Source of the DNA: Escherichia coli
GTDB taxonomy: Bacteria; Pseudomonadota; Gammaproteobacteria; Enterobacterales; Enterobacteriaceae
Assembly: GCF_003334355.1 (NCBI RefSeq)
Contig: NZ_QOWP01000106.1
Strand: one strand, 5' to 3'
Length of the DNA: 464 nucleotides
Shown: in pieces, positions 1 to 464 of the stretch
How the letters are laid out: each line of letters opens with the position of its first letter
Position numbering within the stretch: position 1 is the first letter of the stretch
Position numbers and translations under genes: made by a program
The notes under the pieces: model-generated
Seen by the model: the letters and a program-made list of their open reading frames with translations, nothing else
Databases searched by the model: none
What the model was told of the DNA's origin: nothing

Positions 1-63
1 ATGACTGGGGTGAAGTCGTAACAAGGTAACCGTAGGGGAACCTGCGGTTGGATCACCTCCTTA
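1..63 (+). rRNA. rrs: 16S ribosomal RNA, 3'-terminal fragment (5' part lies upstream of the window)
   Basis: Seen in sequence: universally conserved 16S 3' end GTCGTAACAAGGTAACCGTAGGGGAACCTGCGGTTGGATCACCTCCTTA. The anti-Shine-Dalgarno core CCTCC is at 56-60 and the mature 3' end ...CCTTA is at 63. The helix-45 GGAA loop is at 37-40, with adjacent adenines 39-40 matching E. coli A1518/A1519. The 5' boundary is truncated by the window. Confidence 0.95.
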
Positions 64-131: not shown

Positions 132-208
<77 letters not shown>

Positions 209-250: not shown

Positions 251-326
251 GGGGCTATAGCTCAGCTGGGAGAGCGCCTGCTTTGCACGCAGGAGGTCTG
301 CGGTTCGATCCCGCATAGCTCCACCA
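251..326 (+). tRNA. alaT/alaU/alaV: tRNA-Ala, anticodon TGC (UGC), with encoded 3' CCA
   Basis: The acceptor stem is 251-257 (GGGGCTA) paired with 316-322 (TAGCTCC) and contains the G3-U70 wobble (G253-T320), the classical alanyl-tRNA synthetase identity element. The anticodon stem is CCTGC (277-281) / GCAGG (289-293), with loop TTTGCAC and anticodon TGC at 284-286. T loop TTCGATC, discriminator A323, CCA at 324-326. Confidence 0.97.
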
Positions 327-352
327 TCTCTGTAGTGATTAAATAAAAAATA

Positions 353-386
353 CTTCAGAGTGTACCTGCAAAGGTTCACTGCGAAG
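353..386 (+). promoter_or_regulatory. Imperfect stem-loop with GCAA tetraloop directly upstream of boxA; boxB-like element of the spacer antitermination region (tentative)
   Basis: Hand-folded. The outer stem pairs 353-356 (CTTC) with 383-386 (GAAG) and 359-362 (AGTG) with 377-380 (CACT), separated by a 2x2 mismatch. The inner stem pairs 364-367 (ACCT) with 372-375 (AGGT), closing the GNRA-type loop GCAA at 368-371. A hairpin followed by boxA is the arrangement in rrn leader and spacer regions. Confidence 0.4.
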
Positions 387-389
387 TTT

Positions 390-402
390 TGCTCTTTAAA
401 AA
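390..402 (+). promoter_or_regulatory. Spacer boxA-like transcription antitermination element (binding site for the NusB/NusE-containing antitermination complex)
   Basis: The motif TGCTCTTTAAAAA at 390-402 matches the rrn boxA core GCTCTTTAACAA at 11 of 12 positions, and lies in the expected place between the spacer tRNAs and 23S. The call rests on the motif alone. Confidence 0.6.
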
Positions 403-430
403 TCTGGATCAAGCTGAAAATTGAAACACT

Positions 431-448
431 GAACAACGAAAGTTGTTC
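431..448 (+). other. Perfect 7-bp hairpin with GAAA tetraloop in the distal spacer (probable precursor-rRNA structural or processing element)
   Basis: GAACAAC (431-437) is the exact reverse complement of GTTGTTC (442-448), closing a GNRA tetraloop GAAA at 438-441. A T430-G449 wobble could extend the stem. Function is not determinable from sequence. Confidence 0.3.
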
Positions 449-464
449 GTGAGTCTCTCAAATT

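Follow-up and report, generated by a model that had tools for sequence, protein, structure and literature searches.

The segment studied here is, we are confident, the nut-like site of the Escherichia coli 16S-23S rRNA spacer, in which a boxB-like hairpin (positions 352-387) is followed by boxA (390-402). All positions refer to the window, the whole 464-nt stretch of DNA that was analyzed. An earlier note, made from the sequence alone, had read the hairpin-then-boxA arrangement as an rrn spacer antitermination module and as known biology, and the locus, the conservation of the element, and the literature all back this reading. The element is already known, and confirming it adds no new kind of element: a second boxB-boxA-boxC set upstream of 23S has been described (PMC10250234), boxA and boxB occur in both the leader and the spacer in an order reversed relative to that of lambda, with RNA polymerase being modified at both places (PMC6614797, PMC6614801, PMC8632103), and E. 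coli and many other species carry two boxA copies, one upstream of 16S and one upstream of 23S (PMC4807359). According to PMC4807359 and PMC6614797, the function and conservation of the leader and spacer boxB-boxA were treated by Berg, Squires and Squires (1989; J Mol Biol 209:345), and the part played by the spacer boxA in making 23S efficiently was treated by Pfeiffer and Hartmann (1997). How much antitermination (anti-Rho read-through) counts relative to chaperoning (co-transcriptional folding and processing) is disputed (PMC4807359).

The window represents a 16S-23S spacer of the tRNA-Ile/tRNA-Ala (Ile/Ala) type from an rrn operon. It matches rrnH of E. coli E2865 at 100% identity; the gene order there is gmhB - 16S - tRNA-Ile - tRNA-Ala - 23S - 5S - tRNA-Asp, and the window had a match in 5,426 of the 5,426 complete E. 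coli genomes searched. The 16S 3' end at the start of the window defines the operon and its transcribed strand, and in the identical E2865 locus the 23S gene starts 46 nt past the window end, at window-equivalent position 510. The gene order and the nearby 23S start therefore place the element on the transcribed strand of the distal Ile/Ala-type 16S-23S internal transcribed spacer, that is, inside an rrn operon between the 16S and spacer tRNA genes and the 23S gene, with 138 nt of distal spacer (327-464) following tRNA-Ala in the window. The 71-nt segment holding the hairpin and boxA (340-410) was present in 5,408 of the 5,426 E. coli genomes, with a median of three copies, and no annotated feature lay under it in RefSeq among the records listed. 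The open reading frames were only 21 to 66 aa long, most of them overlapping the tRNA genes or the 16S end, and coding potential was rejected; weak Rfam matches over 299-430 (OxyS antisense, MALAT1, and mir-465) were far below their gathering scores and were set aside as chance.

Some sequence details of the window lie outside the element itself. Position 338 is A (GTGATTAAAT), as in rrnA and rrnD of MG1655, and MG1655 rrnH has G there (GTGGTTAAAT). The A indicates that the E2865 rrnH copy carries an rrnA/D-type distal spacer, a sequence pattern of the kind that gene conversion between operons would leave. At 207-227 there is a perfect 9-bp inverted repeat, CAAATTTGC-ACG-GCAAATTTG, which begins at the last two bases of tRNA-Ile and lies in the gap that separates it from tRNA-Ala. 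Another inverted repeat, of 11 nt (63-87; 82% complementary, 3-nt loop), follows immediately on the 16S 3' end, in the region expected to supply the 3' strand of the 16S leader-trailer helix.

Table. Features of the 464-nt window around the spacer hairpin and boxA, with the evidence for each.
Feature	Position	Strand	Evidence
16S rRNA 3' end	1..63	+	Rfam SSU_rRNA_bacteria, model 1471-1533, 61 bits; RefSeq annotation of identical locus
tRNA-Ile(GAU)	132..208	+	ARAGORN; Rfam tRNA, 66.3 bits; RefSeq annotation
tRNA-Ala(UGC), last gene before the element	251..326	+	ARAGORN; Rfam tRNA, 65.6 bits; RefSeq annotation
boxB-like hairpin	352..387	+	MFE and centroid in three contexts; cofold with 23S trailer; covariation
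Hairpin lower stem	352-356/383-387	+	RNA folding
Hairpin 2x2 internal loop	AG (357-358) / GC (381-382)	+	RNA folding
Hairpin middle stem	359-362/377-380	+	RNA folding
Hairpin mismatch	U363-U376	+	RNA folding
Hairpin upper stem	364-367/372-375	+	RNA folding
Hairpin GCAA tetraloop	368-371	+	RNA folding
UU linker, hairpin to boxA	388..389	+	Direct reading and folding
boxA core UGCUCUUUA, exact rrn consensus, expected NusB/NusE binding site	390..398	+	Sequence match; predicted unpaired
boxA 3' extension AAAA; position 400 is A, replacing leader C	399..402	+	MG1655 leader/spacer comparison
Predicted 23S leader-trailer helix, start of 5' strand	401..464, continuing past window to 23S 5' end	+	RNAcofold
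Predicted segments pairing with 23S 3' trailer	401-406, 409-411, 413-422, 454-460	+	RNAcofold
Local branch hairpin, GAAA loop	427-451	+	RNAcofold
StyR-44 (RF01830) match, model 1-71 of 107, cut by window end	394..464	+	Rfam, 81.5 bits vs. gathering 54

The assignment of boxA rests on an exact match to its core. The rrn boxA consensus is the 9-mer UGCUCUUUA (PMC2724277, PMC6614797), and the window agrees with it at nine of nine positions; over the longer 13-mer it agrees with the leader form at 12 of 13. A search of both strands of the window for the leader 13-mer TGCTCTTTAACAA at ≤1 mismatch found TGCTCTTTAAAAA at 390-402 and nothing else, and such a match was seen in 0 of 200 dinucleotide-preserving shuffles. 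In all seven MG1655 operons the leader reads TGCTCTTTAACAA, starting 144 nt upstream of 16S, and the spacer reads TGCTCTTTAAAAA. The earlier note had reported a one-base deviation from boxA, and this holds for the comparison with the leader 13-mer (C to A) but not for the core: since the consensus is a 9-mer, since 8 nt of boxA are recognized by NusB/NusE in the crystal structure (PMC3177189), and since the change falls at position 11, the boxA core is matched perfectly. Position 11 lies in a leader stretch, ACAAUUUA, that was measured as a weak NusA-binding linker (PMC2724277). The leader-like form AACAA occurs in spacers of Pantoea, Photorhabdus, Xenorhabdus, Providencia, Yersinia, Lonsdalea, Vibrio, Photobacterium, Grimontia, and others, and AAAAA occurs in Escherichia, Citrobacter, Enterobacter, Cedecea, “Ca. 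Steffania,” Pseudoalteromonas, and Pasteurella; most other Gammaproteobacteria sampled have C at this position of the spacer, and T was seen as well. These mixed states across genera indicate that position 11 is tolerant and lineage-specific rather than governed by a spacer-versus-leader rule.

Conservation of boxA was assessed across operons and taxa. Each 5.8-kb E. coli rrn locus contains exactly two copies of TGCTCTTTA, which belong to the leader and the spacer and share the sense orientation, and the spacer boxA together with its first downstream bases (TGCTCTTTAAAAATCTGGA) is identical in seven of seven MG1655 operons despite unrelated classes of upstream hairpin. Representative bacterial genomes were scanned with a conserved 22-mer anchor in the 5' part of 23S, which yielded 120 gammaproteobacterial loci; as the anchor lies in 23S, the sample carries no bias toward boxA-bearing spacers. 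A match to TGCTCTTTAA (≤1 mismatch) was found in 84 of 89 distinct 600-nt regions upstream of the anchor, 68 of them exact, in a sample that includes several operons per genome and is phylogenetically non-independent; with all bases taken as equally frequent, we calculate a chance expectation of about 0.02 matches per region. Leader and spacer copies occurred together in 32 operons where both could be scored, the contig reaching the leader. The conservation that the earlier note had anticipated at the homologous spacer position of Enterobacteriaceae thus holds, and it extends well beyond the family. Thiolinea, Thiomicrorhabdus, Hydrogenovibrio, Idiomarina tyrosinivorans, and one Vibrio isolate had no boxA at ≤1 mismatch within 600 nt upstream of 23S, nor did these five taxa (L020/L021, L064-L066, L099, L118, and L121) have a leader boxA at the expected place; they may use a more divergent boxA. 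Two boxA-like copies were seen in a single spacer in Vibrio fortis (L054; -521 and -375 relative to the 23S anchor) and in Endozoicomonas elysicola (L048; -616 and -248).

The hairpin is equally evident from direct reading and from folding. An imperfect hairpin with a GCAA tetraloop had been proposed at 353-386, and the inverted repeat reads CTTC-AG-AGTG-T-ACCT-GCAA-AGGT-T-CACT-GC-GAAG over exactly this interval. Folded alone, 353-386 reached -13.3 kcal/mol (z = -3.5), equaled by 1 of 200 shuffles; folding of 345-405 gave -15.5 kcal/mol (z = -2.9), with 3 of 200 shuffles folding equally well; and in the 138-nt context of 327-464 both the MFE and the centroid structure contained the same hairpin. 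It is thus the thermodynamically favored fold of this segment, and the covariation described below backs it. The claim that the hairpin precedes boxA by 3 nt was right about the adjoining position but not about the spacing, as an additional A352-U387 pair extends the hairpin to 352-387 and leaves a linker of 2 nt (UU). The stem-loop stands immediately 5' of boxA, opposite to the arrangement in lambda. The complement reaches a similar folding energy (-14.9 kcal/mol), as does that of any inverted repeat, but an RNA from the minus strand was ruled out: the operon is transcribed on the plus strand, and G-U pairs in the homologues, which fit plus-strand RNA only, would be A-C mismatches on the other strand.

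Within a single E. coli cell, hairpins of different sequence occupy this place. The Ile/Ala spacers (rrnA/D/H type) carry ACUUCAGAGUGUACCUGCAAAGGUUCACUGCGAAGU, and the Glu spacers (rrnB/C/E/G) carry a sequence-unrelated hairpin, AUAUCUCAAAACUCAUCUUCGGGUGAUGUUUGAGAUAU, at the same site; rrnG (L003) has a weaker Glu-type variant (-10.8 kcal/mol) with a GUUA loop. In MG1655 the leader boxA is also directly preceded by a hairpin, in two sequence versions. The loops differ among the E. coli operons (GCAA, UUCG, and GUUA) and among genera (GAAA, GCGA, GUUU, and AAGU). Glu-type loops belong mostly to the UNCG class (UUCG, UACG, UGCG, UCCG, and CACG; the rrnC, rrnB, and rrnE spacers are L005, L007, and L008), and GNRA loops (GCAA, GAAA, and GCGA) occur in several Ile/Ala-type hairpins, namely, those of E. 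coli, Citrobacter, Enterobacter, Pantoea, and Photorhabdus. That no loop or stem sequence is common to the hairpins of one cell argues for a structural role (insulation of boxA and fast local folding) over sequence-specific recognition.

Covariation was examined separately in the two hairpin classes. In the Ile/Ala-type alignment of nine enterobacterial sequences, 96.9% of the cells were paired, compared with 31 to 53% in slid controls, and 8 of 15 pairs had changed on both sides; in the Glu-type alignment of 14 sequences the corresponding values were 96.9%, 20 to 48%, and 9 of 16. The observed covariation score was reached by 0 of 500 shuffles in either class; the aligned sequences are related, with several per genome, so these figures are to be read as supportive counts and not as probabilities. 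The mismatch at 363/376 is U-U in E. coli and Citrobacter and A-G in Enterobacter, and the same columns hold a standard pair in Pantoea, Photorhabdus, Providencia, Cedecea, and Xenorhabdus. The Ile/Ala-type upper stem covaries freely, and the lower stem is invariant from Escherichia to Providencia (n = 9). The 2x2 internal loop is nearly invariant: together with its flanking stem bases (354-359 and 380-385) it reads UUC-AG-A ... U-GC-GAA in seven of the nine sequences, with Cedecea and Xenorhabdus differing in the loop bases. With nine related sequences, both patterns may reflect plain relatedness.

A hairpin that lies 25 nt after tRNA-Ala, behind an A/U-rich stretch, could also be a tRNA-maturation or stability structure, a 3' trailer guiding RNase E or RNase P or blocking exonucleases, with boxA as the only functional element and the adjacency of the two accidental. 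Such a reading would sit well with reports that rrn boxB is dispensable for antitermination (PMC6614797, PMC10250234). The comparative data speak against it. In the gammaproteobacterial sample, the 50 nt before boxA folded with a median dG of -13.7 kcal/mol (median z of -3.4), and across taxa the 3'-most helix ended a median of 1 nt before boxA (interquartile range, 0 to 1), whereas the distance from the upstream tRNA to the hairpin ranged from 4 to 202 nt. A strict criterion, requiring a helix of ≤-8 kcal/mol ending within 2 nt of boxA, was passed by 50% of the real cases, compared with 7.5% of windows elsewhere in the same spacers and 5% of shuffles. Moreover, 7 of the 62 scored spacers had the hairpin-boxA pair with no tRNA detected upstream (up to 600 nt upstream of 23S examined), the leader boxA has a hairpin directly before it and no tRNA upstream, and the Glu- and Ile/Ala-type spacers have unrelated hairpin sequences at the same place. 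We consider a tRNA-directed structure quite improbable and retain the hairpin as part of a joint hairpin-boxA site. Deletion of the leader boxB was reported to have little effect on 30S activity (PMC10250234). As boxB is reported to be dispensable and to lack a consensus (PMC6614797, PMC2724277, PMC10250234), the case for a role of the hairpin comes from its conservation only.

Termination was considered as well. With its stable hairpin (-15.5 kcal/mol) and the 8 U among the 11 nt that come right after it (UUUUGCUCUUU), the segment resembles a pause site or a weak intrinsic terminator, which would make it an attenuator between the tRNAs and 23S rather than an assembly site, and a hairpin-dependent pause could in principle allow time for factor loading. 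However, the terminator scan returned no terminator-like site in the window, and in place of the G+C-rich, uninterrupted stem and T run of an intrinsic terminator the stem here is interrupted and A/U-rich at its base. The U tract is moreover the exact boxA consensus, so that it is the sequence and not U-richness that is conserved, and efficient read-through is needed in all operons for equimolar 23S. Attenuation at this point is, in our judgment, very unlikely, and the nut-like site remains the preferred reading.

Downstream of boxA, the spacer is predicted to enter the 23S leader-trailer helix. When the L001 spacer and the 23S 3' trailer of its operon were folded together with RNAcofold, 57 intermolecular pairs were predicted at -111.5 kcal/mol, in a helix reaching the mature 23S ends, which agrees with the general description of leader-trailer helices in PMC10250234. 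The outermost predicted pairs begin at 401, directly after the boxA core, and in this model no stretch other than the core stays unpaired between the hairpin and the base of the helix. The predicted layout resembles that of the leader, in which boxA and boxC come before the strand of the 16S helix. The local branch hairpin at 427-451 is polymorphic in MG1655, with C437T in rrnH and rrnG and A440G in rrnB; the window has the rrnA/rrnD form.

The same region scores above the Rfam gathering threshold for StyR-44, whose first model position falls on C394, inside boxA. Counted from 394, 109 nt would reach to about 502 and stop 8 nt short of the 23S 5' end, close to the presumed RNase III cut in the 23S stem. 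The family is probably the spacer fragment between boxA and this presumed cut, a processing by-product rather than a gene. The original description is of a 109-nt RNA that lies ahead of 23S in every rrn operon and may be a processing intermediate; it was seen by northern blotting in Salmonella Typhi and E. coli (PMC2943607). That the conservation of 390-402 marks the 5' end of an independent small RNA with a function of its own, and not a Nus site, is barely credible despite the Rfam match from 394 and the blot, as its discoverers themselves allowed that it might be a metastable rRNA processing intermediate (PMC2943607), the fragment would end so near the 23S 5' end, a scan found no promoter-like site in the window, and the leader boxA, which is followed by no StyR-44 sequence, is just as well conserved. 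The overlap bears on annotation: an element that is unannotated in RefSeq lies partly under an Rfam “ncRNA” family that is probably a processing fragment.

For the nut-like site, the following course of events can be proposed. The hairpin would fold locally on leaving RNA polymerase and leave the boxA core UGCUCUUUA exposed and single-stranded. The NusB/NusE(S10) heterodimer would then bind boxA and, with NusA, NusG, SuhB, and S4, form or re-form the rrnTAC, and the polymerase so modified would resist Rho and elongate faster. Finally, under the “delivery” model (PMC6614801), the polymerase would keep its grip on boxA, which adjoins the base of the 23S leader-trailer helix, and could thereby bring the 5' strand of this helix to its 3' partner once that strand has been transcribed, some 3 kb further on. 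The leader boxA is cut off from the nascent chain when RNase III cleaves the 16S helix co-transcriptionally, which would explain the need for a second site. The sequence, fold, position, conservation, and covariation of the site were established in the present analysis. Binding of NusB/NusE to the boxA consensus and the need for the spacer boxA in efficient 23S synthesis are taken from the literature as cited in the sources above, and we infer the re-loading rationale, the insulation of boxA by the hairpin, and the handing over of the 23S helix strand. In textbook terms, the site helps cells to produce full-length 23S at the pace of 16S, and it probably assists the two 23S ends in finding one another.

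One further possibility concerns the base at position 11 and the Ile/Ala-type stem. The leader boxA, UGCUCUUUAACAA (L001 2378-2390), contains ACA; the spacer boxA, UGCUCUUUAAAAA (390-402), does not, and ACA is absent throughout 352-402 of the window. We know of no published explanation for the missing spacer ACA or for the invariant lower stem and near-invariant internal loop. A MazF cleavage site has been located inside the leader boxA (PMC12541390), and as the C-to-A change at position 11 removes ACA, the spacer site could be MazF-resistant. On these sequence patterns, the spacer site of Escherichia, Citrobacter, Enterobacter, and Cedecea might be a MazF-resistant re-loading point, with the lower stem and internal loop of the Ile/Ala hairpin making a sequence-specific protein contact, a combination that we regard as improbable. 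If true, a protein contact at the Ile/Ala hairpin would contradict the view of an rrn boxB without consensus. A literature search for a description of boxB contacts in the rrnTAC cryo-EM structure gave no match.

Compared with known systems, the element is closest to the E. coli rrn spacer antiterminator, with which it shares the locus, boxA TGCTCTTTAAAAA, and a hairpin directly upstream, as found in all seven operons. Nothing of substance sets the two apart; the present copy is the Ile/Ala version, whose hairpin is unrelated to the Glu type. StyR-44 overlaps the element but differs from it in being a detected RNA species that runs from inside boxA to just before 23S, without the hairpin or the first four bases of boxA.

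The rrn leader site, a boxB-boxA-boxC set downstream of P2, has the same 9-nt core, a hairpin 2 to 3 nt upstream, and a boxA lying just 5' of the strand that forms the next rRNA's leader-trailer helix. It differs in position 11 (C in the leader, A in the spacer) and in its hairpin, which is unrelated in sequence. The downstream linkers differ too: in the leader UUUAUCAGACAAUC leads to boxC UGUGUGGG, whereas the spacer has UCUGGAUCAAGC. No plus-strand match to the leader-type boxC TGTGTGGG at ≤2 mismatches was found after 402, and the overall count was at chance level; as boxC has been reported to be unnecessary for rrn antitermination (PMC6614797), its absence is compatible with the assignment. 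A GU-rich stretch, GGGTTGTGAGG, is found at the 23S stem, beyond the window.

With lambda nutL and nutR the site shares a NusB/NusE-bound boxA, a stem-loop, and the same host Nus factors, and the spacer loop here is of the GNRA class; according to the reference list of PMC10250234, the lambda boxB loop adopts a GNRA-like fold. The spacer order is reversed, with the hairpin first, and boxA is UGCUCUUUA here and CGCUCUUA in lambda (PMC2724277). The host has no N protein (PMC10250234), and the spacer hairpin, at about 36 nt with internal loops and with a loop that varies among operons, is not the short stem with a GNRA-like, purine-rich, N-bound pentaloop that characterizes lambda boxB. The hairpin is therefore boxB-like by position and shape only, not by similarity to the boxB of lambda.
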